Translations under genes and position numbers: made by a program
Origin: Cyanobacteria bacterium P01_A01_bin.123
GTDB lineage: Bacteria; Cyanobacteriota; Cyanobacteriia; Phormidesmidales; Phormidesmidaceae
Reading direction: 5' to 3'
Length of the DNA: 57,469 nucleotides
NCBI GenBank assembly: GCA_039815185.1
Contig: JBCBZT010000047.1
Span: 1-57,469, forward strand
In this document: positions 12,905 to 31,247 of the stretch, one piece after another
Position numbering within the stretch: the stretch's first letter is position 1
Layout of the letters: each line of letters starts with the position of its first letter
Notes under the pieces: generated by a model
Seen by the model: the letters and a program-made list of their open reading frames with translations, nothing else
What the model was told of the DNA's origin: nothing
Databases searched by the model: none

Positions 12905-12906
12905 AA

Positions 12907-14043: not shown

Positions 14044-14970
14044 TTAGAGTCGCAATGTTAATTGGCGCATCATCACAAATTTCAGTAGATTAATTTTCTG
14101 AGACGAGCCCATCCAAACGGGCACCCGCAAATATTTCCCTAGCAGCAATCGTCCTAAACCTTTAATCCGGGCATAGGCTCGACTTTTGAACCAAATGCTG
14201 AGTTCAGTTGTACCTGTCGCAGCCGCATACATCGGTGGAAAGGCCAACTTGCCGTAAAGCACATCGGCGCGGTGAGCTTTGCTGAGTTTATTTTGCTGAT
14301 GTTCAGGGTTGGGTACTCCACCATGTTCACCGTAGTTGCGAAAGGGCACATAATCCATAAAGCCGCGATCGCGCAAATAGTAATCAATCCCAGAATCCCA
14401 AGGCGTATAGGCCTGGGGTCCCGGATCAGCTGCGACACCATCGGCGAGTTCAATCAACAGCTTGGCACTTTTAGCTGTAATGACGTAGGCCACCATTGAA
14501 GTCGAGTAGCCTTCTGCATAGCCGCGATCGCTAATGTTATAAACCTGCGGCGCACAGGTATATAGCCAAGCAATCCCCAACTGGTCGTCTTCCGGGTCAA
14601 ACGGCGGCGGCAATCTACCAAAGTTTTTAACGGGTATAAAGTCGGCTTCCACAATCAGCGTCGGCTGATCTGAGGTCAAAGCTCGCTCCCATGCCGCTTT
14701 ATGATTCAGCAAACACAAATAGCTGCGGGAATAGTTGTGATATTCAGGCTGATGAACTTGGCGTAGCACCTCACACTTGCAACCCGCCTGAATCAGCCAC
14801 TCTTCTAAGAGTTGCGTCTCTTCCTTATAAGCCAGAATAAACGTTTGCCCGATACAGTCTACTAAACGGGTAGCCTGGACAACAGCGTTGAGTGTGGTAG
14901 CCACAGCAGTCTTCCAATACGACAGCAATTCAATAATTTCAGCCCTGAGACTCAGAAGGCTCATCAGCAA
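14044..14970 (-). CDS. LPS/polysaccharide glycosyltransferase (GT25-like)
   Basis: LCLLNHKAAW, LIVEADF, STSMVAYVIT. Start codon is uncertain. Confidence 0.65.
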   Translation of the reverse strand: MLMSLLSLRAEIIELLSYWKTAVATTLNAVVQATRLVDCIGQTFILAYKEETQLLEEWLIQAGCKCEVLRQVHQPEYHNYSRSYLCLLNHKAAWERALTSDQPTLIVEADFIPVKNFGRLPPPFDPEDDQLGIAWLYTCAPQVYNISDRGYAEGYSTSMVAYVITAKSAKLLIELADGVAADPGPQAYTPWDSGIDYYLRDRGFMDYVPFRNYGEHGGVPNPEHQQNKLSKAHRADVLYGKLAFPPMYAAATGTTELSIWFKSRAYARIKGLGRLLLGKYLRVPVWMGSSQKINLLKFVMMRQLTLRL

Positions 14971-15196
14971 AAGGCTTTGGCATCAAGTCACTCCTCTCAA
15001 ACGGCAGTCGCCTTCTTTGGCAAGCCTAACCTGTCCCTGTCAAAATCGTCTCTCGATGATCGAGTCGATCAAGCTAACTTCAACTTACCCAAAAGTTAAG
15101 ACATTGCCGCAACTTCTCTACCAACGCGTTGGCGGCTTGAGTCCCCGTAAACCCTTCGATCCAAATTAAACCTTTGTGGGTTCATGCATGGGCTAG

Positions 15197-16276
15197 CTAA
15201 CTGCCCTGACCAAATCCTTTAGCACGGTGGGAGACTTGCCAGATTCGCAACTCACCCGCAGTACCGCCTACCGCCAAGCGATCGCCCGATACAGACCAAG
15301 CCAAACAGGTTGCCCCTCCGCTAAATCCCTTCAGGGTTTGAGACAGTTTCTGGGCATTCTGCCAGAGTGCGATTCGACCATCCTGGCCTACCGATGCCAA
15401 AGTAAGTGAGTTGGGTTGAAACGCGATCGCATTCACGCGATCTTTGTGGTGCTCTAATACCCGCGATCGCCAGCCCACCTTAGTCTTATCATGCCGTTCC
15501 CAAACGGTGATGGCTTCAACACAGGCAGCTGCAATCAGAGGAGTGCCAGAGGCAGTCATCGGGGTAGACCAGGCTACTTGCCGCACTTTTCCAGGGAAAC
15601 CCTGCATCAGCCAAGGAGGCGGACTGTTCCACTCCGCTACGGTGAGGGTGCGATCTAAATTTCCCGACCCGAGATAACGTCCATCATCAGACCAAGCCGC
15701 ATACAAACTGGCCCCCGGCACAGCGATCAACTTAGGCCCTGTGGTCCAATCATCTCCAAACCAAACCTTGATGCCGCCATGACCACTGACAGCAAGGGAT
15801 TCCCCGTTGGGATGCCAGGCCAGATGCAAGATGGAAGAATCTTGAAAGTCAAGGTTAGCAACCCGTACGGATTCAGCCACGTCCCAAATGTGGACTTGGG
15901 AGCCGACACCATAAGCTAGATAGCTCTGACTGGGGTGCCAGGCCAGTCGATCAATCCAAATACTGGGATGGTCGTGGTGTAAAACGATGTGACAGTCGGG
16001 CGATTTCACGCCCCAGACCATAACTTTTCCCGACTGTCCACCAGCAGCTAAAAACTGACCGTCCGCAGAAAATCCCAACCCATTGATGGCTTGTCCGCTA
16101 GCAGCTTGAAGGGTTACAGTTTCACCTATCGATCGCGTCAAGACGACCTCCCCCGCTGCCGAAGCCACCGCCAGCCATTCCCCATCTGGCGACCAGGTTA
16201 TAACGGTTACATAGTCTGTCAGGTTATCAGACGCCTGGGGAGTGAATTGTAACAGTGCACTTTTCACGCCAGACAA
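15197..16276 (-). CDS. WD40-repeat protein
   Basis: Repeated W/FSPDG..LA.G...G.V.IW units. It overlaps the upstream COG0523 gene, so the start is approximate. Confidence 0.9.
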   Translation of the reverse strand: MSGVKSALLQFTPQASDNLTDYVTVITWSPDGEWLAVASAAGEVVLTRSIGETVTLQAASGQAINGLGFSADGQFLAAGGQSGKVMVWGVKSPDCHIVLHHDHPSIWIDRLAWHPSQSYLAYGVGSQVHIWDVAESVRVANLDFQDSSILHLAWHPNGESLAVSGHGGIKVWFGDDWTTGPKLIAVPGASLYAAWSDDGRYLGSGNLDRTLTVAEWNSPPPWLMQGFPGKVRQVAWSTPMTASGTPLIAAACVEAITVWERHDKTKVGWRSRVLEHHKDRVNAIAFQPNSLTLASVGQDGRIALWQNAQKLSQTLKGFSGGATCLAWSVSGDRLAVGGTAGELRIWQVSHRAKGFGQGS

Positions 16277-17232
16277 GTCCGAAATCCGTGACGCAATTCG
16301 GCTTCATCCAGATTGCGGCCGATGAATACTAGCTCACTGCGGCGAGTTTCGCTAGGTTTCCAGGGACGATCGCCACGACCATCAAAAATCATGTGAACTC
16401 CCTGAAACACATAGCGGTTAGCCTCCCCCGCCAAGTTAAGGATGCCCTTCATGCGAAAGATATCTGGGCCTTTGGTTTGCAGCAGATCATTCACCCAGGT
16501 ACTGAGCTTGTCACTATCTAGGGGTTGATCCTCCACAATGGCAAAAGAATAGACCGATTCATCGTGTTCGTGGGCATCTTCATTGAGGAATTCTGGATCG
16601 ACTTGTAAAGCGCGATCCAGATCAAAGGCTTTGACGCCCAAAATCGACTCAATCGGTAGTTCAGAATTCTGGGTGCGGTAGAGCTTCACCATCGCATTCA
16701 TATCGAGGATGCGCCGTTCTAGCTCTACCAATTCTGCTTCAGAGACCAAGTCAACTTTGTTAAGCAGGATAACGTCGGCAAAGGCAATTTGCTCCTGGGC
16801 TTCATCGCTGTCCCAGTGTTGCCAGATGTGCTTAGCATCCACCACAGTAATCACGGCATCCAGTGCCAGCTGCGACTGAATATCCTCATCTACAAAAAAG
16901 GTTTGAATCACCGGGGCTGGATCAGCCAAACCAGTCGTTTCAATCACCAGATGGTCAAACTTATCGCGTCGCTGCATCAGATTGCCAATGATGCGAATCA
17001 AATCCCCACGCACTGTACAACAGATACAGCCGTTGTTCATTTCAAAAATTTCTTCGTCGGCATCAATCACCAGCTGATTATCAATGCCCACCTCCCCAAA
17101 CTCATTCACGATGACCGCAACCTTCTTGCCATGCTCATGGGTCAAGATGCGGTTGAGCAGCGTGGTCTTCCCTGCCCCCAAATAGCCCGTCAATACGGTC
17201 ACTGGCATACCCGCTGTTGCTGTCGTCACCAT
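16264..17232 (-). CDS. COG0523/CobW-family G3E metallochaperone GTPase
   Basis: GYLGAGKTT, NEFGEVGID, GCICCTVRGDL, IETTGLADP, NKVD, short HEHD linker and CobW_C domain. Confidence 0.95.
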   Translation of the reverse strand: MVTTATAGMPVTVLTGYLGAGKTTLLNRILTHEHGKKVAVIVNEFGEVGIDNQLVIDADEEIFEMNNGCICCTVRGDLIRIIGNLMQRRDKFDHLVIETTGLADPAPVIQTFFVDEDIQSQLALDAVITVVDAKHIWQHWDSDEAQEQIAFADVILLNKVDLVSEAELVELERRILDMNAMVKLYRTQNSELPIESILGVKAFDLDRALQVDPEFLNEDAHEHDESVYSFAIVEDQPLDSDKLSTWVNDLLQTKGPDIFRMKGILNLAGEANRYVFQGVHMIFDGRGDRPWKPSETRRSELVFIGRNLDEAELRHGFRTCLA

Positions 17233-17773: not shown

Positions 17774-17827
17774 TCATAAATAATCCATATTGATTCAATC
17801 AAGACTTTTATGGATAAAAGCTCTGAT
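17774..17827 (+). promoter_or_regulatory. Candidate LysR-type operator upstream of the ABC operon
   Basis: ATAAATAATCCATAT (T-N11-A, 17776-17790), followed 22 bp later by ATCAAGACTTTTAT and then ATAAAAGCTCTGAT. It resembles the boxes at 23596-23631. Confidence 0.45.
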
Positions 17828-17912
17828 TAATCCAAGATGTATATCTATTTACAGTTCCTTCTGTAGATTGATGGATTAAATAAATCTAACAAGCGTTGAG
17901 GCAGATAAAGTT

Positions 17913-19427
17913 ATGCAGTATTTACTGGGTTTGTCTAAGCAAAAAATTGCGACCGGTTTTCTAGCCACATCAATACTTTTCATAGGTGCTTGTTCTGCCA
18001 GCACTGTTAGCTCTGATGCTGAAGGGGAGAGCTCTTCAGGGGGTTCTGGAGAAGTTATTCGGATTGCAATTGGTACGCAAGATCAGGTAATCAATACAGC
18101 TGTTGGTGGAGCCACAGTTCGAGAGTTAGAACTATTAGAAAAACACCTGCCAACCGATGGCAAATATGAAGGGGTTGAATACGATATTCAATGGTCTAGT
18201 TATACATCTGGTCCACCCATTACTAATAAAATGCTGGCCGATCAGATTGATATTGGTCTCATGGGTGATTTCCCAGCTGTCATTAATTTGATTAAATTTC
18301 AGCAAGAAGCCCAGGATGCCGATTCGGTTTTTATCGGTACCTTGGCCTACAGTCCAAATGGGGCTGGCAACGCCGTTGTTGTCCCTAAAGATAGCGATGC
18401 AACGTCCCTAGAAGACTTAAAAGGCGGCACGGTTTCGGTACCTTTTGGCTCCGCTGCCCACGGCATGGTACTCAAGGCTTTAAATGACGCAGGGATTAAT
18501 CCAGAAACCGATGTAGAGCTGATCAGCCAGGCTCCTGAAGTGGGGGGCTCAAGCCTACGCACCGGGCAAATCGATGCCCATGCTGATTTCGTCCCCTTTG
18601 GTGAACTGTTCCCCTTCCGGGGCTTCGCCAAGAAGATCTTTGATGGTGCTCAAACGGGTGTCCCCACCCTGCACGGTATCGTTGTTCGGACGGACTTTGC
18701 TGAAGAACACCCTGAAATTGTGGTGGCCTACCTAAAGGCTATGTTAGAAGCCAATCAAATGTTCCAGGCAGATCCAGAAGGCATCTCTGCTCAAATTGAG
18801 GAATGGTCTGGCATCGACAAGGAAGTGGTCTACATGTTCTTAGGCCCATCTGGACTCCAACCCCTCGACCCTACCATTCGTGAGACCCAGGTGAGTGCCC
18901 TGAAAAACAGCATTGCGACCCTGACTAGCCTGGGTAAAATCGAGAACCCGGTTGACCCCGAAGAAGTCACTGGCTGGATTGATGAAAGCTATCTCCAAAT
19001 GGCGATGGAAGAGTTGGGCTTAGATTACGACGAGGTGATTGCCACCGCTGAGGCTTATCAGATTAAGGGTGAAGATGCCCTGACCGGAGAAGCCATTGAA
19101 GATCCTAAGTTGGCTGCTCAGTTCTGGGTGCAAGAAGAAGAGACTGTGACAAACTTCGCGTCTATCCCCAACATGTTAGAGGCATTGGCAGCTTTGCAAG
19201 CTGAGGGTAAGGCAGCGGATGTGATGTTTGTTCACGATCGCAACAACGGCTGGAAGTTATTTGCCGAGAATTCCCATTTTGTCAGCAATGGCGATGAAGT
19301 CTCAGCATTCCTACTGGAGTCGGATGCTGAGGCCTACGCTTCAGAATCTGGGGGGCAGGTGACTGCTTTCAAAGGTCTACAGGATCTCTATGCAGCGCAG
19401 CAGCCCGTACTGGTAGGCACCCGCTAG
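17913..19427 (+). CDS. ABC transporter substrate-binding lipoprotein (SsuA/TauA/NMT1-like) with a C-terminal NosL-like extension
   Basis: Lipobox IGAC, SGPP, IDIGLMGDFP, SLEDLKG..VSVPFGSAAHG, and an extra C-terminal domain of about 120 aa. Confidence 0.88.
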   Translation: MQYLLGLSKQKIATGFLATSILFIGACSASTVSSDAEGESSSGGSGEVIRIAIGTQDQVINTAVGGATVRELELLEKHLPTDGKYEGVEYDIQWSSYTSGPPITNKMLADQIDIGLMGDFPAVINLIKFQQEAQDADSVFIGTLAYSPNGAGNAVVVPKDSDATSLEDLKGGTVSVPFGSAAHGMVLKALNDAGINPETDVELISQAPEVGGSSLRTGQIDAHADFVPFGELFPFRGFAKKIFDGAQTGVPTLHGIVVRTDFAEEHPEIVVAYLKAMLEANQMFQADPEGISAQIEEWSGIDKEVVYMFLGPSGLQPLDPTIRETQVSALKNSIATLTSLGKIENPVDPEEVTGWIDESYLQMAMEELGLDYDEVIATAEAYQIKGEDALTGEAIEDPKLAAQFWVQEEETVTNFASIPNMLEALAALQAEGKAADVMFVHDRNNGWKLFAENSHFVSNGDEVSAFLLESDAEAYASESGGQVTAFKGLQDLYAAQQPVLVGTR

Positions 19428-19525: not shown

Positions 19526-20380
19526 ATGGTAGTTACGGCTTCAAAGGTATCTAATCTGAGCTGGGGGAAACAGGTCGGGAAAGGGCTGCAAGCTTTCTTC
19601 TTGGCCAATCGCCCTGCAAGACGGTTATTGGCGCTAATGCTGTTCTTTGGGGGATGGCAGATACTTTGCACGATTAACTTTGATTTTTTTATCAACTTTC
19701 AACTGATTCCTTCTCCCATTGAGGTCATTAAGGCCACTATCCAGTTTTTGACGAGTTCGCCGTGGGTGCATTTTAGATCCAGCATTATGCGGGTGCTGCT
19801 GGGCTATGCGATCGCGTCCTGTTTCGGTGTGATCTTGGGGATATTAATTGGCTGGTTCGAGGTGGTTGAAGATCTGATGCTTCCCCCCCTAGAGCTGCTG
19901 CGCCCGATTCCGGCAGTCGCCTGGATTCCCTTAGCCATTTTGATGTTTCCCAATGCCGAAAGTGGCATGGTTTACATCACATTTATTGGCGCTTTTTTCC
20001 CAGTGTTGATTAGTACCGTCAGTGGCGTAGAGAGCACCCTCAGCGATACGGTGCTGATTCGGGTGGGGCAGTGCCTAGGGGCTAGATCTTGGCATATTTT
20101 CAAAGACATTGTGGTACCAGGGTCCCTACCGAGCATTGCCAGCGGCCTAACCATTGGTATGGGCAATGCTTGGTTCTGTCTGGTGACTGCTGAAATTTTG
20201 GCGGGGCGCTACGGCGTGGGTTATATCACCTGGGAATCTTACGTCACGTCCAACTATCCCCCGATTGTGATGGGAATGTTGCTGATTGGTTTGATGGGCG
20301 CGTTAAGTTCCTGGGCCGTGAGTCGGGCAACGAGTGCCCTAATGCCCTGGCGAGTGATCAAGAAGCAGGGCAACTCATAG
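19526..20380 (+). CDS. ABC transporter permease (SsuC/TauC-like)
   Basis: LLRPIPAVAWIPLAIL, EAA-like loop GQCLGA, WFCLVTAE. Confidence 0.92.
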   Translation: MVVTASKVSNLSWGKQVGKGLQAFFLANRPARRLLALMLFFGGWQILCTINFDFFINFQLIPSPIEVIKATIQFLTSSPWVHFRSSIMRVLLGYAIASCFGVILGILIGWFEVVEDLMLPPLELLRPIPAVAWIPLAILMFPNAESGMVYITFIGAFFPVLISTVSGVESTLSDTVLIRVGQCLGARSWHIFKDIVVPGSLPSIASGLTIGMGNAWFCLVTAEILAGRYGVGYITWESYVTSNYPPIVMGMLLIGLMGALSSWAVSRATSALMPWRVIKKQGNS

Positions 20381-20422: not shown

Positions 20423-21241
20423 ATGTTGACTCAGCAACTGAAGACACGACAGACGGTAAAAGGTTCTGTCCAAGTGGAAGGGCTCTCGGTGACTTTCCGC
20501 CGTCGGGGCCATGAAAACTGTGTTTTAGATTCAATTCAACTGGGTATTCAACCCGGTGAATTCGTTTGTTTACTAGGCCCTTCAGGGTGTGGTAAATCAA
20601 CGCTGCTAAACGTCATTGCTGGGTTTTTGAAACCCTCGGCGGGCTACGTCATGGTGGATCAAGCTGCGGTGACTCACCCCGGTGCCGATCGCGGGTTTGT
20701 GTTTCAACAATACTCACTGTTGCCCTGGAAAACAGCCTTTCAAAATGTGGAACTGGGACTCAAAATTCGGGGCATGCCCAAAGCTGAACGCACCGAGTTG
20801 GTCAATGACTACCTGACTCGTGTAGGGCTTTACAAGTACCGCAATAACTATCCCCACCAGCTGTCAGGGGGAATGCAGCAGCGCGCCAGCATCATTCGCG
20901 CGCTGGTTAATTCACCGTCAGTGCTGTTGATGGATGAGCCCTTTGCAGCCCTGGATGCCCAAACCCGGCACATGATGCAGGAAATGCTGCTGGACATTTG
21001 GGAGGACTTAAAAACCACGGTTATTTTTGTCACCCACGATATTGAGGAGGCAATTTTCTTGGGCGATCGCATTTTTATTATGGGCGTTCATCCCGGCCAT
21101 ATTAAAGCTGAGTTACCGATTCGGCTCAGTCGCCCGCGCCACTTCGATACCACCCTCACACCAGAGTTTGTCAATCTATCCCGCCAAATCTTTGAGTGCA
21201 TTCGAGAAGAAACGCTGAAGAGTATGGAGGGCAGTTTTTAG
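20423..21241 (+). CDS. ABC transporter ATPase (SsuB/TauB/NrtD-like)
   Basis: GPSGCGKST, LSGGMQQR, LLMDEPFAALD, FVTHD. Confidence 0.95.
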   Translation: MLTQQLKTRQTVKGSVQVEGLSVTFRRRGHENCVLDSIQLGIQPGEFVCLLGPSGCGKSTLLNVIAGFLKPSAGYVMVDQAAVTHPGADRGFVFQQYSLLPWKTAFQNVELGLKIRGMPKAERTELVNDYLTRVGLYKYRNNYPHQLSGGMQQRASIIRALVNSPSVLLMDEPFAALDAQTRHMMQEMLLDIWEDLKTTVIFVTHDIEEAIFLGDRIFIMGVHPGHIKAELPIRLSRPRHFDTTLTPEFVNLSRQIFECIREETLKSMEGSF

Positions 21242-21371: not shown

Positions 21372-23411
21372 CTAAATTGACGCCATCGCCTTTTCCAAAA
21401 ATTCTGGCTGCATCCAACGATCTAAATTGATATGGCCCATATGCTCTTGCCCATTAATCTGGCTGAGCTTATGGATATGGGCTTGCAGCCAATCAGTCCG
21501 GAGCTGGGTTCCAGGTTGGTACACGGCATCTGCAGGGCAACCTTCACTGGACATTAGCGTTTTCGTAACAATGGCCGGGTCAATATTGACCCAACGGCTG
21601 ACCAAGGTAGCGGCAATTGATTGAGTACTGTACCAATATTGTGCTGCGATTAGGGCTTTTAGATAGGCAATCGTGATTTCAGGGAATTGCTCAACAAAGT
21701 CATCGGCCATGACAACGCCATGGAAGGTCGGTAACTCATCAAGACTATCCTGAAGCAAACGACGAAACTGGCCTTTATGCTTGGCAATTTCGTGGAAAGG
21801 GGCGAAATAAGCATAGCCATCTACTCGATCAGCATTCTTCGTCAACCGTTGGGTATTTAGGGTGTCAATTGAGGTCAGGGTAACCTCATCTAGGAGTTGC
21901 CGATTGTGGAGCGATCGCATCACCATGCCGTGGGCAGCGGAGCCAAAGGGAACTGCAATTATTCTGCCTTCCAAATCTTCAATGCAGTTGAGCTGAGACT
22001 GTTGGGGCACGATGATGTCGTTACCGGTGCCATCTAGATTACTGGCAACAAAGCTAATCAACCGCGTATTCGCAGTCAGAGACGTGCTATCGCTCGGCGG
22101 CATGGCACTTAGCAGTAGCGGATAATCCCCCAACACACCAATATCAATCTGCCTTGCCGCCAACCCCGCCACAATCGGAGCCCCCGAGCTATAGTTCGAC
22201 CACCGAATCTGATATTGGGTACCACTGTAGCGACCCTCACGGGGGAGAAAATGCTCAAGTAACCCCAGTCGCTGAATAATCAGTCCGGCGGTCACGGTTT
22301 GAATCGTTTGGTTCTGGGTGCCAATGGTAATCGTGATGGTCTCTGAAGGGCTGGTTGACCCACTTCGCATTAAGAAGTTGGGAGCCTGAAATTGAGGAAT
22401 TTTTTGTCCCGCAGCGGGTGTTGACTCAGCACGGGCAGGCACATGGGGTGCGCCAAACTGCCCCCGAGTCGCTCGCTGACGTTCTAGCATCGTCACAAAC
22501 TGCTGAATCGGTTCTAGGGCCTGCCGGCCTCGAAAAGGTTTTTGTTGGCGATTACTTAAAGCCCGCTCCAGACGCTTTGGCATCAGCAGAAATAGCGGCA
22601 TCGCCAGAGCAAACTCGGCTAGCGGCACATCGCGAATCAGCCCCGCCTGCCGTTCGAGCTGAAAATCAAAACTCGAGACAAAACTCACATAGTGGCCTTG
22701 CAGCAAATAGGTGCGAACTAAACTGGGCGCATCAACAATTTCAACATGGGCGAAATCTGACAGGCTAAGCCCTAATTCCTGCATGCGTTTCTGTAGAATA
22801 ATCCGGCTGGGAAAACCTTCTGGCAACAGCACCCAGGGTTGATTGATTAAGTCTTTCAAGCTGAGCCAGTGATGCTGAGCTAGCCCGTGACTACAGGACA
22901 TCACCACAGAGTAGTGGACGGTGTCAATGATGGCTTCTGAAATTTCGTCAAAGGCAGAAAAACTAAGATTTGAAATCCCTAAATCAGCCTCTCCATTCTT
23001 AATGGCACGATATAACTGCTCAACCGAATTTAATGGGAGACAATTCGTCTTAACATCTGGGTAGATGCGGCGATAATCATATAGTTTTGACGGTAGCCAG
23101 TGATCCAGAATATCTGCCATACAGCCAATTTTCAGACTGCTAAACTTCCCCTGCTTGATTGCTTCAACTTCTGTAACCAGTTGCATTTCCAGATCAACTA
23201 ATTGAGGCCCCTCTTCCAAAAGGTACTCCCCAGTTTGTGTCAGTTCAATGCGGCGTCCTAAGCGCCTGAACAAGGCGGTATCCAAGGCGGATTCTAAGGA
23301 TTTTATTTTCGCACTAACCGCTGGCTGAGTGAGATTTAGCGCGTCAGCAGCTTCGGTAAAGCTAAGGCAACGAGCAACTTCTAAAAAGACCTTAAGTTGA
23401 TAAATTTCCAC
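21372..23411 (-). CDS. LysR regulator fused to a C-terminal SsuA-like binding-protein domain
   Basis: LysR HTH (SFTEAADALNLTQPAVSAKIKSLE), LysR effector domain, a linker, then a domain homologous to the 17913 product. Confidence 0.88.
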   Translation of the reverse strand: MEIYQLKVFLEVARCLSFTEAADALNLTQPAVSAKIKSLESALDTALFRRLGRRIELTQTGEYLLEEGPQLVDLEMQLVTEVEAIKQGKFSSLKIGCMADILDHWLPSKLYDYRRIYPDVKTNCLPLNSVEQLYRAIKNGEADLGISNLSFSAFDEISEAIIDTVHYSVVMSCSHGLAQHHWLSLKDLINQPWVLLPEGFPSRIILQKRMQELGLSLSDFAHVEIVDAPSLVRTYLLQGHYVSFVSSFDFQLERQAGLIRDVPLAEFALAMPLFLLMPKRLERALSNRQQKPFRGRQALEPIQQFVTMLERQRATRGQFGAPHVPARAESTPAAGQKIPQFQAPNFLMRSGSTSPSETITITIGTQNQTIQTVTAGLIIQRLGLLEHFLPREGRYSGTQYQIRWSNYSSGAPIVAGLAARQIDIGVLGDYPLLLSAMPPSDSTSLTANTRLISFVASNLDGTGNDIIVPQQSQLNCIEDLEGRIIAVPFGSAAHGMVMRSLHNRQLLDEVTLTSIDTLNTQRLTKNADRVDGYAYFAPFHEIAKHKGQFRRLLQDSLDELPTFHGVVMADDFVEQFPEITIAYLKALIAAQYWYSTQSIAATLVSRWVNIDPAIVTKTLMSSEGCPADAVYQPGTQLRTDWLQAHIHKLSQINGQEHMGHINLDRWMQPEFLEKAMASI

Positions 23412-23595: not shown

Positions 23596-23631
23596 ATGGA
23601 AATTATTTATGAGTTTATAGAAGGCTTTGAT
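23596..23631. promoter_or_regulatory. Candidate LysR operator pair in the divergent promoter
   Basis: Two T-N11-A dyads 21 bp apart, ATGGAAATTATTTAT and ATAGAAGGCTTTGAT. The reverse strand shares TCATAAATAAT with 17774-17784. Confidence 0.5.
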
Positions 23632-23793
23632 TGGCAAACAGTAGCTATGGTTACAAACCCTATTGATGGGCTCCATAGGTGTCCTCTAAGATTCTGAAAA
23701 TGCATCAAAATCAGTGGTTTCGTTGCCATTGTTTTGACCCTCACAAATCTTTTCAATTCGATCTCACTGCTGTTTAAGCCGAGGACACAATTA

Positions 23794-25497
23794 GTGAACA
23801 CTCAGTATTTGAAAACTGACTTCCTGGTAGTGGGTGGTGGCACTGCCGGAACCATGGCTGGGATTAAAGCCAAACAGGCTAACCCCGAGAGCGAAGTCCT
23901 GATTTTAGAGAAAGCAAATATTCGCCGCAGTGGCGCGATCGCGATGGGGATGGATGGCGTCAACACTGCTGTTATTCCGGGTAACTCGACTCCAGAGCAG
24001 TACACCCGCGAGATCACCATTGCTAATGATGGCATTCTCAACCAGAAGTCCGTGTATGAAACGGGCCGTCTAGGCTTCGAGGTCATTCAGGAGCTAGAGA
24101 GTTGGGGGGTCAAGTTTCAGAAAGATCACGAAGGCAACTACGACCTCAAACAGGTACACCGGGTCGGTAAATATGTATTGCCCATGCCCGAAGGCAAAGA
24201 CCTGAAGAAAATTTTGGCCCGCCAGGTGAAGCGTCACAAAGTCAGCGTCACCAATCGCGTCATGGCAACTCGGGTGATGGTACAAAACGGTCGGGTGACC
24301 GGGGCTGTTGGCTTCGATGTCCGCAATGGTGATTTTGTGGTGATCCAAGCCAAAGCGGTGGTACTCTGCACCGGAGCCTGCGGTCGACTGGGGCTACCTG
24401 CCTCGGGCTATCTCTACGGCACCTATGAGAACCCGACCAATGCTGGAGATGGGTATTCCATGGCCTACCACGCTGGGGCAGAACTCACTAACATCGAATG
24501 CTTCCAGATTAATCCGCTGATTAAAGACTACAACGGCCCTGCCTGTGCCTATGTTGCTAGCCCCTTTGGCGCTTACACCGCCAATGCTGAGGGCCACCGC
24601 TTCATCAGCTGCGACTATTGGAGCGGCCAAATGATGTTAGAGGTGTGGAAAGAGCTCAACTCGGGTAAGGGGCCAGTGCACCTAAAGATGTATCACCTCG
24701 ACAACGATACCATCTCAGAAATCGAGACCATCTTGTGGGCCAATGAGCGTCCTAGCCGGGGCCGCTTCCACGAAGGGCGGGGAGAAAACTACCGCACCGA
24801 CGGCGTAGAAATGAACATCTCCGAAATTGGTCTCTGTAGTGGTCACAGCGCCTCGGGGGTCTGGGTAAACGAACGAGCAGAAACCACAGTGCCTGGCCTC
24901 TATGCTGCTGGCGATATGGCTAGCGTTCCCCATAACTATATGATTGGCGCGTTTGTCTATGGCCGCATCGCTGGGGAAAATGCCATGACCTACGTGCACG
25001 ATTTAGAACACCTGGAACCCGATGCCGACTTTTTGGCAGCGGAGAAAGCCCGCATTTACCAGCCCCTCCAGCGGCCTGAGGGGGTACCGCATACCCAGGT
25101 TGAATACAAGTTGCGACGGTTGGTGAATGACTATCTACAGCCACCCAAATCGCCCCACAAAATGGATATCGGGTTAGAGAAGTTCGTCGCTTACAACAAT
25201 ACCCTTAACGATATGGGGGCCTGTGATCCGCACGAACTGATGCGCTGTATGGAAGTCCACTTTATCCGTGACTGTGCCGAAATGGCAGCCCGTGCGTCTC
25301 TCTACCGCAAGGAAAGCCGCTGGGGGCTGTATCACTACCGCCTCGATTATCCCGAGAAGAACAACGACGAGTGGTTCTGCCACGTCAATCTCAAGAAAGG
25401 CGCAAACGGTGAGATGGAACTCTTCAAGCGTGCGGTTGAACCCTACATTGTGGATGTGAACCTAGAGCAAGAAGTGTACGACGTTGCCATCCGCTAA
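23794..25497 (+). CDS. Fumarate reductase/APS reductase alpha-like FAD flavoprotein (AprA/AsfA-like)
   Basis: VVGGGTAG, EKANIRRSGAIAMGMDGVN, NAGDGYSMAYHAGA, GLYAAGD, RKESRWG..HYRLDYP. GTG 23794 follows a GAGGA RBS. Confidence 0.88.
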   Translation: MNTQYLKTDFLVVGGGTAGTMAGIKAKQANPESEVLILEKANIRRSGAIAMGMDGVNTAVIPGNSTPEQYTREITIANDGILNQKSVYETGRLGFEVIQELESWGVKFQKDHEGNYDLKQVHRVGKYVLPMPEGKDLKKILARQVKRHKVSVTNRVMATRVMVQNGRVTGAVGFDVRNGDFVVIQAKAVVLCTGACGRLGLPASGYLYGTYENPTNAGDGYSMAYHAGAELTNIECFQINPLIKDYNGPACAYVASPFGAYTANAEGHRFISCDYWSGQMMLEVWKELNSGKGPVHLKMYHLDNDTISEIETILWANERPSRGRFHEGRGENYRTDGVEMNISEIGLCSGHSASGVWVNERAETTVPGLYAAGDMASVPHNYMIGAFVYGRIAGENAMTYVHDLEHLEPDADFLAAEKARIYQPLQRPEGVPHTQVEYKLRRLVNDYLQPPKSPHKMDIGLEKFVAYNNTLNDMGACDPHELMRCMEVHFIRDCAEMAARASLYRKESRWGLYHYRLDYPEKNNDEWFCHVNLKKGANGEMELFKRAVEPYIVDVNLEQEVYDVAIR

Positions 25498-25647: not shown

Positions 25648-25875
25648 ATGGCCCTAACGACCCAACGCGTAGACGTTCCTGTAATTGTGGACGAATCAAA
25701 ATGCTTAGAGAAATGTGTGGCCTGCATTGAGGTCTGCCCCCTAGATGTGCTGGTGAAAAACCCCGAAACTGGCAAAGCCTACATGAAGTACGACGAGTGC
25801 TGGTTCTGCCTACCCTGCGAGAAGGAATGTCCGACCAACGCGATCACGGTACAGATTCCGTTCATGCTGCGATAA
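25648..25875 (+). CDS. 2x[4Fe-4S] ferredoxin (AprB/AsfB-like)
   Basis: CLEKCVACIEVCP and CWFCLPCEKECP, with an AAGGA RBS. Confidence 0.93.
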   Translation: MALTTQRVDVPVIVDESKCLEKCVACIEVCPLDVLVKNPETGKAYMKYDECWFCLPCEKECPTNAITVQIPFMLR

Positions 25876-25928
25876 GGATCTTCACCGAGTCGCTGTCATC
25901 TCGCTGCTGTCATTTTGGAGAACCCCCT

Positions 25929-26906
25929 ATGTACACGACCGATATGGATCCAGAAGTTGCTCAATGGGTTGAAATGCTGCGATCGCCGGTGCTAGAAGAG
26001 CGTCTGGTCGCAGTCAAAACCTTGCAACATTTGGGGGATGAAGACGCCATTGAGCCCTTAATTGGAGCGCTGAATGACGAAAACCCCACAGTGCAAGAAA
26101 TTGCCATTACCACCCTCTGGGAATTTGCTACTCCAGTCGCCATTTCGCCCCTAATTGAGTGCCTTAGTTCATCCCATGAAAACGTGCGGAATGAAGCATT
26201 ATCTGCCCTGAAGGAGCTGGTGTCGACCAACGACCTAATGAAGCTGCTGGATCTGTTGCAGGTGGGCAATCCTCACGCCCAACTCAATGTATTAGTCCTG
26301 TTACGCAAGATCCACGACGCTCAAGCCCTGCCATTCATTCTGCCGTTCTTTGAGTCTGAAGACGCCAAATTACGGGAAGCAGCGGTCATTACCCTGCGCT
26401 ATTTAAATCAGGTCGTGCGCTGCCCACCCGCCCTGTCCCTAGCCCAGGATCCTGATGCATCGGTGCGGCGAGCAACCACGCTAACCTTGGGGCATCTCAA
26501 TGATGAAGCTATCGTACCGCTGCTGTGTGACTTGTTGACCCGTGATGCTGACTGGCAGGTACGGCGTAATGCAGCCCAGTCGTTAGATTTGATTGCCAGT
26601 CCCGATGCTATTGCAGCCTTGATCACGGCGATGGCCGATGGGGAATGGCAAGTGCGCAAATTCACAGCTCGAGCCCTGCAAAAAATCGCCGATGAGCAGG
26701 CCCTACCAGCACTGATCAAGGCACTGGCTGATGAGTATTCTGATGTGCGCCGGGATGCCGCTACTGCACTAGGGAACTTGCAAGAAGCCAATGCTTTACC
26801 AGCCTTGCAGCAAACGCTGAACGATCCCGACATGGATGTACGGATTTTCTCTCAGCGGGCGATCGACAAAATTCAGAAGTCTTTGCCGGAGAACTCTCAT
26901 GCCTAG
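25929..26906 (+). CDS. HEAT-repeat (PBS lyase-like) protein
   Basis: Repeated L..AL.D....VR..AA.ALG units. GGAG RBS precedes ATG 25929. Confidence 0.9.
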   Translation: MYTTDMDPEVAQWVEMLRSPVLEERLVAVKTLQHLGDEDAIEPLIGALNDENPTVQEIAITTLWEFATPVAISPLIECLSSSHENVRNEALSALKELVSTNDLMKLLDLLQVGNPHAQLNVLVLLRKIHDAQALPFILPFFESEDAKLREAAVITLRYLNQVVRCPPALSLAQDPDASVRRATTLTLGHLNDEAIVPLLCDLLTRDADWQVRRNAAQSLDLIASPDAIAALITAMADGEWQVRKFTARALQKIADEQALPALIKALADEYSDVRRDAATALGNLQEANALPALQQTLNDPDMDVRIFSQRAIDKIQKSLPENSHA

Positions 26907-28011
26907 CCATTCTTCTCCCTTCCATCGAGCCGATGAGTCCATCCCCGAAATGTCCACCCCCCCTAGTCCTGAAACGCAGGCCCGTAAAGCGGTGGTGATT
27001 GAACAGCTCAAGGCGCTTCAAGAACCCACTTTGCAGAACGATCTGATTAGCCTGGGCATGGTGCGTAATCTGCAAGTCGTCGGCGATTATATCTACCTGC
27101 GCCTCTATGTTGGTTGCCACCAACTTGGTTTACAAGCGCAAGTGCAGCACACCTTGGGGCAACTGCCCTGGTGCAAAAAAGTCTATGCCGAGCTTTGCAC
27201 GATTCCCAACGTGCGCACCACCTTAGCGGTCTCTAGTGGCAAGGGCGGTGTGGGCAAATCTACAACGGCCGTTAACCTGGCAGCAGCCCTGACTCGAACA
27301 GGGGCGAAAGTGGGCCTGCTAGATGCTGATATCTACGGACCTAATGTGCCTCAGATGCTGGGTTTGGGCCAGTCTCAGGTACGGGTGGTCGATACACCTG
27401 ATGGTCAGCGCTTTATCCCGCTAGAAGCCCACGGCATCAAGCTGATGTCAGTGGGGCTATTGGCAGAACGAGACCATCCTTTAGCCTGGCGTGGTCCGGT
27501 GATGCACAAGATTCTGACCCAGTTCATCCATGAGGTGGATTGGGGAGCGCTGGACTATCTGCTGATTGACCTCCCCCCTGGCACAGGTGATGCTCAAATC
27601 ACCATCGTCCAGGAAAGCCCGATCTGCGGGGTCGTGATGGTGACAACCCCCCAACAAGTGGCGGTCTCAGATGTGCGTCGCAGTGTCTATATGTTCCGGC
27701 AAGTGGGGGTACCGGTGTTGGGATTGGTCGAAAACATGAGTTATCTCTTGTGTGGTCATTGCGGCGAACCAACGCCAATTTTTGGGGCGGGCGGTGGCGC
27801 TCAGATTGCCACGGAACTGTCGGTACCTTTATGGGGACAAGTGCCAATTGACCCGCGCATCTGTGCCCAGGGTGATGCTGGCGAACCCCTACCGTTGAAA
27901 GTACCTAATGCCCCGCTCAGCCAAATCTTTAGGCAAATTGCGACGGGCCTAAATCACACTTTCGGATTGACGCCAATACAGCGAGAGTTAGCCTTGCAGA
28001 CCCTGGCCTGA
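26899..28011 (+). CDS. apbC: Mrp/NBP35 (ApbC) Fe-S cluster carrier ATPase
   Basis: N-terminal DUF59-like region, SSGKGGVGKST, DADIYGP, WRGP, DLPPGTGD, ENMS..CGHC. The start overlaps the HEAT gene stop. Confidence 0.9.
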   Translation: MPSHSSPFHRADESIPEMSTPPSPETQARKAVVIEQLKALQEPTLQNDLISLGMVRNLQVVGDYIYLRLYVGCHQLGLQAQVQHTLGQLPWCKKVYAELCTIPNVRTTLAVSSGKGGVGKSTTAVNLAAALTRTGAKVGLLDADIYGPNVPQMLGLGQSQVRVVDTPDGQRFIPLEAHGIKLMSVGLLAERDHPLAWRGPVMHKILTQFIHEVDWGALDYLLIDLPPGTGDAQITIVQESPICGVVMVTTPQQVAVSDVRRSVYMFRQVGVPVLGLVENMSYLLCGHCGEPTPIFGAGGGAQIATELSVPLWGQVPIDPRICAQGDAGEPLPLKVPNAPLSQIFRQIATGLNHTFGLTPIQRELALQTLA

Positions 28012-28208: not shown

Positions 28209-28931
28209 ATGGGCATCGAAACGTGGCTGATTGGCTTGGGCATTGTTGCGATCGCAGGCTTTATTCGAGGCTTTGCCGGCTTTGGTTCAGCCATGATTCT
28301 AGCCCCTGCTCTCAGTTTGCTGTTCGAACCTCAGCAGGCCGTTGCCACGATTATTTTGCTAGAAATGACCGCTGGTGCAGGTCTGGTGCCAGAAGCCAGC
28401 AAAAAGGCTAAATGGCAAGCGGTGCTCCCCCTCGTATTAAGCGCAATGGTGATGGTGCCGGTGGGTGCCCATTTCCTGTCACTGCTGGAACCCAATTTGA
28501 TTCGCCGCATCATGGGTGGACTGATTTTGGGGTTTGTCCTGTTGTTAATGATTGGCAAAAGCCACTACAGCAAACCTCACCTGATGTTGACCTCAGCAGT
28601 GGGTGCCCTCAGTGGCTTCCTCACCGGCCTCACCAGTATGGGGGGCCCCCCAATCGTGCTGTATGAAATGTCGGGGGAAAACTCCGCTGCTGCAAATCGG
28701 GCCAATTTCATTATTTTCTTTGCCCTGACCCAATTCATTGCCCTGATGTCGTATTGGACTAGCGGCATTTTAACGATCGCGATTTGGCAGCTCTTTGCCA
28801 AATTTGTGCCCGCTTTTGGGATGGGGCTACTGGTAGGACGCTTTTGCTTCAAACAGGTCAATGAAGTCCTATTTCGACGGTTTGTACTCGGCCTATTGCT
28901 GGTAGTCGCAGTCATGGCGTTGGTGGTGTGA
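28209..28931 (+). CDS. TauE/SafE-family sulfite exporter
   Basis: AGFIRGFAGFG and SGFLTGLTSMGGPP internal repeat, about 8 TM helices. Confidence 0.88.
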   Translation: MGIETWLIGLGIVAIAGFIRGFAGFGSAMILAPALSLLFEPQQAVATIILLEMTAGAGLVPEASKKAKWQAVLPLVLSAMVMVPVGAHFLSLLEPNLIRRIMGGLILGFVLLLMIGKSHYSKPHLMLTSAVGALSGFLTGLTSMGGPPIVLYEMSGENSAAANRANFIIFFALTQFIALMSYWTSGILTIAIWQLFAKFVPAFGMGLLVGRFCFKQVNEVLFRRFVLGLLLVVAVMALVV

Positions 28932-29998
28932 TTCTCAGGATTCAAACAATGAAGTTATCGTCAAAATCGAAGGCTAGCGACGCTACCTCAGCGTATGCCA
29001 GCTGGCTAACCCAGGGATTGACAGTGCTTCCCGGACTGGGACTCACGGCACTCATCGCTGGCCTCTCAATGACTTTCAGTGGTGCCCTGGGGATAGATAT
29101 CTTGAATCCTCTACTGATAGCAGTATTGCTTGGCATCGGTTTGCGACATCTGGTGAGATTACCAGAAATGTACCGTCCCGGCATTCAGTTCTCAATGAAA
29201 CGCGTTTTGCGACTGGCAGTGATTTTGCTAGGGCTACGGCTCAGCATGGCTGAAGTTCTAGCAGTGGGGCCAGTAGGGTTGATTATTGTGGCGTCTAGTA
29301 CGGTCAGTACGTTCTACCTCACCTGTTGGCTAGGGCGTTGCTTACAGGTTAATCGAAAACTAACCCAGTTGATTGCGGCAGGCACCTCGATTTGTGGGGC
29401 CTCAGCGGTGGTGGCGACAAATGCAGTGGTCGACAGTCCGGAAGAAGATATGGCCTACGCGATCGCAACTATCACTGGGTTCGGCACCTTAGCCATGCTG
29501 GGTTATCCCCTCGTCTCAAATCTGCTGTCACTCAGCCCTCAAGCCTTTGGCATTTGGTGTGGGGCCTCGGTGCACGAAGTCGCTCAGGTCATTGCCACTG
29601 CGTTCCAAGGTGGCACTCTCAGCGGAGAGTTGGCCACGGTAACCAAGCTATCACGAGTGTTGCTGGTGATTCCGATCATGCTTAGTCTGGGTTGGCAGGC
29701 AAACCAAGCTGGCGCAGCCAACAGCGATCGCCCCCGCCAAATCCCTATCCCTTGGTTTGTCTTGTTTTTTAGTCTGCTGGTGGTGATCAACAGCTTTGGC
29801 ATCGTTCCAGAAGCCGTTAAAGTACCGATTCTCAGCGGCAATAAACTGCTACTTTGCATGGCACTCGGGGCCATGGGGCTAGAAACCAACGTATCCCGCC
29901 TGACGCAATTGGGGATGAAACCCATTTATCTGGCCGCAGCCTCCTGGCTATTTTTAGCGGTGACTAGCCTGGCCTTGATCCACCTGTTGCTAGCTTAA
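28928..29998 (+). CDS. YeiH family putative sulfate exporter (PSE)
   Basis: LRLAVILLGLRL, LIAAGTSICGASAV, GASVHEVAQV, TKLSRV. It overlaps the previous stop (GTGA). Confidence 0.9.
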   Translation: MILRIQTMKLSSKSKASDATSAYASWLTQGLTVLPGLGLTALIAGLSMTFSGALGIDILNPLLIAVLLGIGLRHLVRLPEMYRPGIQFSMKRVLRLAVILLGLRLSMAEVLAVGPVGLIIVASSTVSTFYLTCWLGRCLQVNRKLTQLIAAGTSICGASAVVATNAVVDSPEEDMAYAIATITGFGTLAMLGYPLVSNLLSLSPQAFGIWCGASVHEVAQVIATAFQGGTLSGELATVTKLSRVLLVIPIMLSLGWQANQAGAANSDRPRQIPIPWFVLFFSLLVVINSFGIVPEAVKVPILSGNKLLLCMALGAMGLETNVSRLTQLGMKPIYLAAASWLFLAVTSLALIHLLLA

Positions 29999-30018: not shown

Positions 30019-30294
30019 TTAGTCATCCGGGTGGTCTAGGCCAGCGGCGATCGCTTGCTGGATGTCTGCGTAGACAATCTCCCCAGCGGCAGCATGAATT
30101 TTGAACGTCTGCGGGGGTTGTGTCATCACCGCGATCGCAGTTTCAATCGGGGAGCAACCCGGTTTATGGCACTGGAGCTGGCTAATGGAGATGGGCACAT
30201 CATCAGACAAGCTGAGGATTTCGGCAGTCCAGGTTTTGAGGTGTTGAATATGCTCGGGATTTGCAGTGGGGCGTTGTTGTTTAAACAGGTTCAT
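30019..30294 (-). CDS. Small conserved protein with a CxxPGCxPxET motif
   Basis: LKTWTAEILSL...ISISQLQCHKPGCSPIETAIAV. Likely start is ATG 30294. Confidence 0.7.
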   Translation of the reverse strand: MNLFKQQRPTANPEHIQHLKTWTAEILSLSDDVPISISQLQCHKPGCSPIETAIAVMTQPPQTFKIHAAAGEIVYADIQQAIAAGLDHPDD

Positions 30295-30320
30295 CGGTCT
30301 CGAAGAGATAGGCGGATGCG

Positions 30321-31247
30321 CTATTTTACCGCCACTGGCTGGCAAATTAGCCCGTAATGCTCGGGGCAGCGGTGGGCGGAAAAATTAAAAATGGTGCGCT
30401 TGTAGGGCAACCCCGCATCCAGGTCGCAGCAGGCGACAATCAGCTCATCCCCCACAGTCAGCGCTTTGGCAATAATCTCCCCGGAGGGGGCAATGATGCA
30501 GCTATCACCAATCATGTCGCAGCCTTCTTCACGTCCGGCTTTGGCCACCCCGACCACCCAGGTGCCATTCTGGTAGGCTCCAGATTGCATAGAGAGGTGA
30601 TTGTGGAAATGGTTGAGGTGATCGCTGCTGGGGTCGTGGGGGTTATGTTGGGGCGTGTTGTAGCCTAGCAGTACCATCTCGACACCCTGGAGCCCCATGA
30701 CGCGGTAGGTTTCGGGCCAGCGGCGATCGTTGCAAATACACATGCCGAGAATGCCGCCAAAGGCTTGCCAAACTTTAAACCCCAGGTTGCCAACTTCAAA
30801 ATAGCGCTTTTCTAAATGTTGAAACGCTCGCCAGGGTTCATGTTCTGCGTGTCCTGGCAGGTGGATTTTGCGGTACTTGCCAATAATCTGGCCGGCTTGA
30901 TCGACCAGAATCGCGGTGTTGTAGGGGTGGACTTCGCCCTGTTCTACAATCCGTTCGGCGTAACCCAGATGAAAGCCGATACCTAATTGCTGCGCCAGGT
31001 CGAATAAAGGCTGGGTAGCGGCATTCGGCATCTCGAACTCAAAGAACTGATCGATCTCAGCCGGATCCTCCATATACCAACGGGGGAAGAAGGTAGTCAG
31101 GGCGAGCTCGGGGTAGACCACTAGGTCACAGCCTCTGGTGTGGGCTTGGTGCATCAGAGCCATCAGGCGCTTGACGACGGTGGTGCGGGGTTCATCGCGG
31201 GCAATGGGGCCAAGCTGGGCGGCTCCGACGGTCAACATTCTGGGCAT
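30321..31247 (-). CDS. N-carbamoyl-D-amino-acid amidohydrolase-like enzyme (nitrilase superfamily)
   Basis: Catalytic E-K-C triad in PELALTTFFPRW, YRKIHLPGH, HLEKRYF and CICNDRRWPE. Confidence 0.9.
   Translation of the reverse strand: MPRMLTVGAAQLGPIARDEPRTTVVKRLMALMHQAHTRGCDLVVYPELALTTFFPRWYMEDPAEIDQFFEFEMPNAATQPLFDLAQQLGIGFHLGYAERIVEQGEVHPYNTAILVDQAGQIIGKYRKIHLPGHAEHEPWRAFQHLEKRYFEVGNLGFKVWQAFGGILGMCICNDRRWPETYRVMGLQGVEMVLLGYNTPQHNPHDPSSDHLNHFHNHLSMQSGAYQNGTWVVGVAKAGREEGCDMIGDSCIIAPSGEIIAKALTVGDELIVACCDLDAGLPYKRTIFNFSAHRCPEHYGLICQPVAVK

Follow-up and report, generated by a model that had tools for sequence, protein, structure and literature searches.

A LysR-type regulator fused to an importer-type binding-protein domain between two cyanobacterial operons with NtcA-type promoter boxes

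Why should a transcription factor that already has a ligand-binding domain carry a second one, related to the binding protein of the importer encoded beside it? The question is raised by a minus-strand gene at 21372-23411 in contig JBCBZT010000047.1 of Cyanobacteria bacterium P01_A01_bin.123, of which the whole 57,469-nucleotide stretch is called the window here. Its product is a LysR-type regulator fused to a binding-protein domain of the TauA/SsuA fold, and the gene lies between the operon of an ATP-binding cassette (ABC) importer and the operon of a flavoprotein resembling sulfur-compound reductases. A first-pass annotation regarded it as a two-input factor holding a cytoplasmic copy of the binding protein of its own transporter. 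On balance, the evidence is taken here to favour an NtcB-like co-activator that would sense an imported N-SO3 compound used as a nitrogen source, its importer-derived domain being docked, as the models predict, on the LysR body.

Architecture, conservation and origin of the fusion

The open reading frame encodes 679 amino acids from a GTG start without interruption. Three Pfam domains were found, all exceeding their cut-offs: HTH_1 at residues 5-62 (PF00126, 75.5 bits against 26.6), LysR_substrate at 91-281 (PF03466, 76.9 bits against 28), which forms a two-lobed effector domain after a linker helix, and NMT1_2 at 402-602 (29.5 bits). The protein is a LysR by its helix-turn-helix and effector domain and a variant by architecture, since it departs from the LysR norm of about 300 residues and one effector domain in its length and its second binding domain. 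By BLASTP, residues 359-676 align with residues 49-365 of the importer binding protein at 17913-19427, with 106 of 322 positions identical (33%, E 1e-55). Pfam and BLASTP thereby bear out the first-pass description of a complete LysR followed by a domain paralogous to the lipoprotein at 17913; the boundary placed at 22337 was exact, as residue 359 maps to that base, and the quoted motifs are all present, with VPFGSAAHGMV identical in both proteins. The appended domain has neither a signal peptide nor a NosL-like tail, and it also lacks the QxPxVG motif that free binding proteins keep. The NosL-like C-terminal domain of the neighbour (19038-19424) scores 23.5 bits, just under the cut-off of 24, exceeds it in two homologues (P0132, P0133) and is conserved, with a ratio of nonsynonymous to synonymous substitution rates (dN/dS) of 0.053.

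An AlphaFold2 model built with 50 homologues reached a mean predicted local distance difference test (pLDDT) of 85.9 and a predicted template modelling score (pTM) of 0.81, with low confidence in the linker at 318-335. In fold comparison its N-terminal half resembles full-length LysRs, and its C-terminal half matches SsuA (3e4r; Z 28.3, root-mean-square deviation (rmsd) 3.0, 283 residues aligned), TauA (6ssy; Z 27.1, rmsd 2.8, 276 aligned), the C-terminal regulatory domain of CmpC (9uai; Z 25.4, rmsd 3.3, 294 aligned) and NrtA (2g29; Z 24.7). A sequence search of the appended domain against solved chains gave four matches, all TauA or SsuA, with no NrtA or CmpC chain among the four. The fusion scores 60.9 bits against the SsuA/TauA-type model TIGR01728, under its cut-off of 163.5, and the importer binding protein also stays below, at 133 bits there and at 83.9 against the 304.25 of TIGR01729. 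The fusion is not NtcB, not NrtC/CmpC and, by score, not TauA/SsuA.

Full-length homologues are common. Query coverage is at least 98% in 118 of the best 120 of 392 homologues; one of these is the protein of the window itself, the others are 51-76% identical, and the closest named ones among the best matches are of the Leptolyngbya/Nodosilinea type. The domain is fused to LysR in 47 of 48 genome loci, and the lone unfused locus belongs to a nanopore-only assembly whose gene for the flavoprotein also has a frameshift. Of 80 metagenome loci, 75 were considered (five N-terminal-only matches excluded), and 25 of these were scored as fusions, one of them frameshift-ridden; in one more (L139) the linker is interrupted by a single in-frame stop while both halves are intact, which is either a natural split or a sequencing error. 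Two frameshift-ridden loci were met altogether (L047, L128), and a search for split homologues among shorter proteins gave 21 matches, many marked partial or lying on short contigs. The fusion is virtually certain to be real and conserved; a chance or assembly fusion, which the first-pass annotation would have read from homologues that are normally split, is ruled out by the recurrence across genomes.

The family is patchy, being present in 5 of 401 cyanobacterial genomes and in 17 of 61 related genomes. The flavoprotein occurs in the same 17, the importer binding protein in 15 of them, and a divergent flavoprotein gene stands at 43 of 48 fusion-domain loci, the remaining five ending at a contig edge. 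All named members encountered are cyanobacterial; one divergent clade among them holds a protein that bears the name Cyanobium sp. NAT70, and the whole module also occurs in picocyanobacterial-type loci. Leptolyngbya sp. BL0902 and Pseudanabaena galeata CCNP1313 are among the carriers. Two contigs with the whole module and picocyanobacterial-type fusion proteins (L125, L187) have a GC content of only 30%. In 34 fusion sequences, from pairs filtered for saturation and not independent of each other, median dN/dS was 0.061 for the effector domain and 0.087 for the appended domain, lying between the values of the helix-turn-helix and the linker (Table 1); that of the free importer binding protein was 0.034 (20 sequences). 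The appended domain is under purifying selection.

The importer binding protein is 49-50% identical to proteobacterial binding proteins, as against 33% to the fused domain, and by these identities a recent local duplication of the neighbour was rejected. In a quick tree of 82 rows, redundancy-reduced from 280, the 33 fused domains grouped as a single clade (support 100) inside the long-binding-protein family (support 97), and no sister was resolved in this or a second quick tree. Since the neighbour is nearer to the proteobacterial proteins and the clade nests in this way, the sequences indicate that the appended domain is an ancient paralogue within the importer binding-protein family. The first-pass phrase of a copy of its own transporter's binding protein therefore holds at the level of the family and not of the neighbouring gene.

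Promoters of the two flanking operons

The consensus core of the NtcA box is GTA-N8-TAC (PMC8042125; this and the other articles cited here are represented by excerpts of their text). Both operons beside the fusion gene carry such a box preceded by tandem putative LysR boxes of the T-N11-A type (ATA(A/G)-N7-T(T/G)AT-like; Table 1). The genome has an NtcA-like gene of the Crp family (C115). The core was found in 30 of 32 homologous importer promoters (shuffle mean 3.1, maximum 8) and in 36 of 63 flavoprotein promoters (shuffle mean 5.8, maximum 13), the latter divided into 33 of 48 fusion loci versus 3 of 15 non-fusion loci. Ten picocyanobacterial-type loci have it in the divergent region in five cases, and upstream of the importer in two of the three with sequence there; upstream of the first gene, it was seen in 2 of 16 non-fusion flavoprotein loci. 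As a background, the core occurs within 330 bp in 201 of the 4540 upstream regions of the genome, and the full TGTA-N8-TACA within 120 bp in only 10 of them.

The spacing of the LysR-type dyads is likewise regular. In 27 of 29 importer promoters the box is preceded, at 27-28 bp, by a pair of 15-bp dyads 6 bp apart; in 32 of 33 flavoprotein promoters such a pair precedes it at 8-9 bp. A matrix made from the importer promoters of other genomes ranked the importer promoter of the window 1st and the flavoprotein promoter 7th of 4540, and its 99th percentile was passed by 24 of 48 flavoprotein promoters at fusion loci versus 1 of 15 at non-fusion loci. Given the conserved NtcA boxes beside tandem dyads at both operons, the locus looks nitrogen-controlled. 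Judged from these motifs, the fusion very probably co-regulates the two flanking operons with NtcA, and the second input is likely to be nitrogen status, delivered through NtcA on the DNA. The main revision of the first-pass annotation is thus that the regulatory logic shifts from sulfur to nitrogen.

The closest known arrangement is that of NtcB (Protein Data Bank 8h3z), co-activator of nirA-nrtABCD-narB, which is also a LysR acting beside an NtcA box through a tandem pair of 15-bp dyads that precede importer and reductase genes, and whose effector domain superposes on that of the fusion (Z 18.9, rmsd 2.5, 195 residues aligned). NtcB differs in having no appended binding domain and other target enzymes. 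The dyads differ as well: at nirA, ATGC-N7-GCAT occurs twice, 7 bp apart and 15 bp from the NtcA box (bioRxiv 10.1101/2022.10.10.511513), as against the 6-bp spacing and the distances of 9 or 27-28 bp at the fusion loci.

Predicted docking, pocket and candidate ligand

Residues 1-320 and 338-679 were folded as two chains in three runs with their own alignment. The docking score was 0.72 (runs 0.72, 0.80 and 0.01) versus 0.02 for the best control; the docking mark is reached by 116 of 157 solved pairs and 2 of 215 mismatched pairs, counts that hold roughly for this alignment. At least 27% of the contacts are common to the runs, and the partner pLDDT is at least 80. The closest predicted contacts join W182, R209, E212-G214 and 265-269 to 381-389 and 589-593, and the linker end (339-348) is predicted to run along the effector domain. 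The core contacts, in nine-residue sets, are conserved at 0.89 and 0.91 versus domain means of 0.62 and 0.70. Furthermore, H387, A589 and W593 of the fusions stand where free binding proteins have K, E and M, and the R209/E266/F267 patch is absent from eight ordinary LysRs of the genome, bar a single F at 267 in three. Docking of the appended domain on the effector domain through fusion-specific conserved residues is thus supported by the models.

TauA contacts its sulfonate through Gln30, Gly61, Gly79 and Thr132 and its amine through Glu106, Thr132 and Asp205 (PMC6906117). In the fusion, Gly61, Gly79, Thr132, Glu106 and Asp205 align to G410, G428, A492, N464 and H564, and Gln30 was assigned to Q366 by a G-x-Q motif outside the alignment; the pocket region comprises Q366, G410, G428, D429, N464, S491, H494, F536 and H564. 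By this alignment the oxyanion site is kept and the ammonium-binding acids are replaced. Taurine is an unlikely ligand because the amine-binding acids are replaced. At 26 positions hand-chosen around the aligned TauA sites, and compared by alignment and not in three dimensions, the domain is identical to the neighbour at 20, versus 33% overall, and shares 23 with a sulfatase-linked binding protein of Paraburkholderia. As regards a degenerate pocket, the second objection foreseen in the first-pass annotation, the core members keep the pocket largely intact; drift does occur in divergent clades. The appended domain is probably a ligand sensor. The cytoplasmic sensor with a duplicated pocket that was first proposed agrees with the fusion, the kept pocket, the missing signal peptide and the predicted packing, and is to be corrected in that the domain is an old paralogue and not a recent duplicate; the idea is plausible, a bound ligand and a further input at the LysR cleft being proposals within it.

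An alternative is that the appended domain is structural, stabilising or reshaping the LysR tetramer or contacting RNA polymerase or NtcA, with the inducer at the ordinary LysR cleft or with none. The pocket drifts in divergent clades while the docking residues persist, a domain of the same family sits on a LysR in an unrelated dimethylsulfone cluster, and the effector domain of NtcB itself touches RNA polymerase (bioRxiv 10.1101/2022.10.10.511513). We consider this alternative unlikely in view of the 20 and 23 matching pocket positions kept by core members at 33% overall identity and of the variation in several columns round the ordinary cleft (column 98 is T in 26 and M in 15 of 50; column 200 is T in 25, S in 10 and F in 8), although it is the rival that fares best.

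The preferred reading, that of a sensor for the imported compound, can be refined from the partner enzymes. The flavoprotein scores 1009.7 bits against NF006131 (PRK08275 family; cut-off 587), and its best solved relative is the 3'-phosphoadenosine 5'-phosphosulfate (PAPS) reductase of M. thermolithotrophicus (8a8o, E 1.3e-68). Like that enzyme and the adenosine 5'-phosphosulfate (APS) reductase AprAB, it combines a fumarate-reductase-family flavin adenine dinucleotide (FAD) subunit with a two-cluster ferredoxin (PMC10322725); unlike AprAB, it is under the AprA cut-offs (192 versus 641.75 and 316.8 versus 557) and has a conserved arginine replaced. In the APS/PAPS reductase class, attack of FAD N5 on sulfur releases sulfite (PMC10322725). 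Clusters of a PRK08275 flavoprotein, ferredoxin, HEAT-repeat protein and ABC importer occur in proteobacteria, actinobacteria and cyanobacteria under generic annotations only.

Outside cyanobacteria, the same binding-protein family stands, with GntR or Crp regulators, beside a PRK08275 flavoprotein or, instead, beside a sulfatase of about 455 residues with its formylglycine-generating enzyme; GntRs from the one context and the other share full-length homology (52% over 241 residues; 45% over 233), and SulP is found in one sulfatase-context locus and one related locus. Since the same importer family accompanies either enzyme, the ligand is plausibly an X-SO3 compound cleavable by hydrolysis or reduction. 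On plasmids of Paraburkholderia, Gordonia and Mycobacterium (L105 at 6990-15061, L110, L111), GntR, the sulfatase and the maturation enzyme lie together, with the same importer in Paraburkholderia and Gordonia and SulP in Paraburkholderia and Mycobacterium; these sulfatases (51.7 and 51.5 kDa) are candidates for sulfamate hydrolases.

Within cyanobacteria, 19 of 401 genomes have the flavoprotein without the fusion, and 15 of these plus one plasmid gave 16 loci. There the flavoprotein is 81-85% identical, stands behind an SsuA-type gene in 13 of 16 loci and in several is near methionine- or cysteine-synthesis genes; no TauE, YeiH, LysR or long binding protein was found at these 16 loci. Sulfur-anion exporters accompany the fusion loci, and near some of these are nitrogen-scavenging genes, namely allophanate hydrolase (L119) and formamidase with UrtBCD (L099), all above cut-offs, besides the urease genes UreD (L124) and UreF (L099). 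A near-identical flavoprotein in nitrogen-controlled settings with sulfur export and in sulfur-linked settings points to a substrate with both elements, and it seems somewhat favoured that the ligand holds nitrogen and sulfur. Because of the conserved NtcA boxes, sulfamate-like compounds rank ahead of sulfonates, sulfate esters and thiosulfate, candidates from a first-pass panel that had also included sulfamate. Sulfamate itself, as the simplest candidate, is a tentative choice.

Based on these considerations, the fusion would be a pathway-specific, NtcB-like co-activator of a nitrogen-scavenging module. Under nitrogen limitation, NtcA would bind the boxes at the importer and flavoprotein promoters, and the importer would take up a small X-SO3 anion with X carrying nitrogen, most simply sulfamate. 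The appended domain, docked as predicted on the effector domain, would close on the imported ligand; its closure may shift the LysR tetramer on the tandem dyads and thereby boost NtcA-dependent transcription. By the chemistry of their families, the flavoprotein and ferredoxin would split the N-S bond by reduction, giving ammonium and sulfite, while TauE and YeiH would export the surplus sulfur.

Two further rivals concern what is sensed. The domain might respond to the product, sulfite or sulfate, in a feedback or for induction of TauE and YeiH; in fact, the exporters travel with the fusion loci and are found in none of the 16 non-fusion loci, and the oxyanion-binding backbone positions are the best-kept part of the pocket. 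This is improbable in that the importer promoter has the same dyads, fitting substrate induction, and that the pocket resembles those of importer binding proteins, in which a fit to the waste product would not be expected. A little less probable still is a sulfur-starvation regulator for sulfonates or sulfate esters, modelled on the aryl-sulfonate module asfRABC of Pseudomonas putida S-313. The closest folds are SsuA and TauA, the same flavoprotein occurs in sulfur contexts of other cyanobacteria, and asf also clusters a binding protein, ABC transporter, reductase with ferredoxin and regulator, a likeness drawn from its description (PMC4267179), from which the present locus differs by the sulfate-limitation control and aryl-sulfonate substrates of asf (PMC4267179). 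Against it speak the conserved NtcA boxes, the co-located sulfur-anion exporters, the nitrogen-scavenging neighbours, the replaced amine-binding acids and a family member in a marine picocyanobacterium; sulfate is plentiful in the sea. A sulfur-free nitrogen oxyanion (nitrite, nitrate or cyanate), sensed by a fused NtcB and NrtC-type protein, would fit the NtcA control and the fold matches to 9uai and 2g29, and is very improbable with only TauA/SsuA chains among the four sequence matches, an NMT1_2 score of 29.5 bits versus 257.8 for the NrtA/CynA-type protein at 35270, and partner enzymes of sulfur chemistry.

Several observations weigh against the co-activator and N-SO3 reading preferred here. 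The Atlas model of the fusion is less confident (pTM 0.48), one of the three docking runs failed to reproduce the contact, and all 31 listed effector-side contacts together are conserved at 0.63 versus 0.62, which is ordinary. In the pocket, G410 is changed to A, N464 to S or A and H564 to Y in four picocyanobacterial-type rows, H564 is present in only 51% of 29 core rows, and the second-lobe motif is changed in P0129 and P0131. At the flavoprotein of 15 of the 48 fusion loci, the 330 bp scanned hold no NtcA core; the shuffle test of the dyad pattern is post hoc, since that pattern had been drawn up by eye from the very promoters tested; and the reverse matrix cross-test is weak, the importer promoter ranking 683 of 4540 with 9 of 32 passing. 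The loci are kin, and their counts overstate independence. Leu aligns with Arg265 of AprA, which we take to be its active-site arginine, so catalysis by the flavoprotein is only suggested by its family. Lastly, the related domain of a second fusion family serves a dimethylsulfone, that is, a sulfur cluster.

Related architectures, other features and implications

This second family is represented by a 697-residue protein (L097:9864-11957) with a LysR helix-turn-helix and a binding domain 26% identical to the appended domain of the window. Its members have about 670-700 residues and no LysR_substrate match (further loci L213-L219); 113 homologues at E of at most 1e-30 are mostly from Nostoc, and 10 of 401 cyanobacterial genomes have it. 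It stands beside sfnG/sfnB-type genes in all seven loci fetched from the 10 genomes and also beside ssuD/ssuE, one locus (G158) having ssuE with a flavin monooxygenase, a setting of dimethylsulfone sulfur scavenging. In a quick tree its domain forms a clade of its own within the binding-protein family that also holds the appended domain of the window, and the two fusion families may have either one or two origins. A 779-residue protein without LysR (P0141) joins the HEAT-repeat protein to the importer binding protein, and many high-GC metagenome contigs (L143-L192) carry the importer with no flavoprotein or sulfatase nearby, several adjoining a biotin-carboxylase-like gene.

Among characterised proteins, canonical LysRs (CcmR/NdhR 5y2v/5y2w, CynR, YeiE, BenM) share the helix-turn-helix, linker helix and two-lobed effector domain, to which the fusion adds a 320-residue binding-protein domain and the surface patch R209, E212-G214 and E266-L269. 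The NrtC/CmpC domain regulates an ABC ATPase, and NasS regulates a separate antiterminator. In NrtC/CmpC (9uai; PMC8042125), as in NasS and here, a periplasmic-binding-protein fold is reused as a cytoplasmic regulatory module beside an importer; the fusion differs in placing the module on a DNA-binding LysR and deriving it from the TauA/SsuA side, with only the fold similar to NrtC/CmpC. With TauA (6ssy; PMC6906117) and SsuA (3e4r, 2x26) it shares the class II binding-protein fold and the Gln/Gly/Gly sulfonate positions; it departs from TauA by Asn and His in place of Glu106 and Asp205 and by being cytoplasmic and fused, and the window proteins are under the SsuA/TauA cut-offs. No published link of the locus to sulfamate and no description of a LysR-binding-protein fusion were found in the literature searched, with most subscription papers and supplements outside its scope; databases label the protein by its domains only, and the excerpted cTFbase text does not mention the fusion.

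Table 1. Features of the fusion gene and its flanking operons in the window (dN/dS values are medians of 34 fusion sequences)
Feature	Coordinates	Strand	Remarks
LysR-type regulator fused to TauA/SsuA-fold binding-protein domain	21372..23411	-	679 aa; Pfam, BLASTP, AlphaFold2
LysR helix-turn-helix, residues 5-62	23226..23399	-	PF00126 E 3.1e-21; dN/dS 0.038
LysR effector-binding domain, residues 91-281	22569..23141	-	PF03466 E 1.8e-21; predicted docking patch: R209, E212-G214, E266-L269
Variable linker, about residues 318-345	22377..22460	-	pLDDT <50 at 318-335; dN/dS 0.52
Appended cytoplasmic binding-protein domain, residues 357-679	21375..22343	-	BLASTP, alignment, fold match
Tandem LysR-type dyads (putative), 17776-17790 and 17797-17811	17776..17811	+	end 27 bp before NtcA box
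NtcA-type box upstream of importer	17839..17852	+	GTA-N8-TAC flanked by T and A
ABC importer binding protein	17913..19427	+	N-terminal signal, lipobox-like IGAC (read from sequence), SsuA-like core
ABC permease	19526..20380	+	PF00528
ABC ATPase	20423..21241	+	PF00005; convergent with fusion gene
Tandem LysR-type dyads (putative), 23596-23610 and 23617-23631	23596..23631	+	divergent region; end 9 bp before NtcA box
NtcA-type box upstream of flavoprotein operon	23641..23654	+	
PRK08275-family flavoprotein, APS/PAPS-reductase-alpha-like	23734..25497	+	start may be GTG at 23797
4Fe-4S dicluster ferredoxin, beta-subunit-like	25648..25875	+	
HEAT-repeat protein	25797..26906	+	similar to C-terminal part of PRK13800 flavoproteins
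Mrp/NBP35 Fe-S carrier ATPase	26836..28011	+	
TauE/SafE-family anion (sulfite) exporter	28209..28931	+	PF01925
YeiH-family putative sulfate exporter	28928..29998	+	PF03601 above cut-off; TIGR00698 200 bits, under 232.6

Elsewhere in the window, an NrtA/CynA-type ABC importer (35270-38716; NMT1_2 257.8 bits) has a binding protein with an unusual N-terminal extension of about 130 residues, and upstream of it a PAS kinase (32643-33923) and an AraC-type response regulator (34294-35103) were read from the sequence. A carbon-nitrogen hydrolase and a 108-residue protein without family match (30019-31247) are convergent with the flavoprotein operon at its yeiH end, a gene pair not seen at the 48 homologous loci. 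A CobW-type GTPase and a WD40 protein (15197-17232) are divergent from the importer and not conserved, with one weak WD40 match among the 48 loci. Farther away lie a low-GC island (39%; 12320-13908), possibly acquired, with a YpsA/SLOG-like protein and a membrane pentapeptide-repeat protein, and two tandem paralogous small secreted proteins of 138 and 116 residues (8579-9616). SLOG genes often accompany defence systems. The gene pair at 31304-32475 resembles a toxin-antitoxin module of the VapC45-type PIN/DUF433 kind.

LysR proteins are textbook two-domain factors, and a conserved third, importer-derived domain with a dedicated interface would show a new mode of input to them; such a family is a ready template for biosensors. 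The evidence from regulator, promoters and exporters narrows the substrate of the PRK08275 cluster to an anion bearing nitrogen and sulfur. In its widest form, which is advanced here with considerable reserve, the proposal is that cyanobacteria ranging from mat-forming filaments to picocyanobacteria of the sea obtain nitrogen from sulfamate, or from a closely related N-sulfonated compound, by a hitherto undescribed reductive N-S cleavage through an APS-reductase-like flavoenzyme, that the switch is a three-module LysR with a docked allosteric sensor, and that this architecture was redeployed for dimethylsulfone in Nostoc. Sulfamate is a breakdown product of acesulfame that is not used by the degraders themselves (PMC10413263). 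If the ligand is sulfamate, the locus would reveal both a new nitrogen source of cyanobacteria and a fate for this breakdown product.

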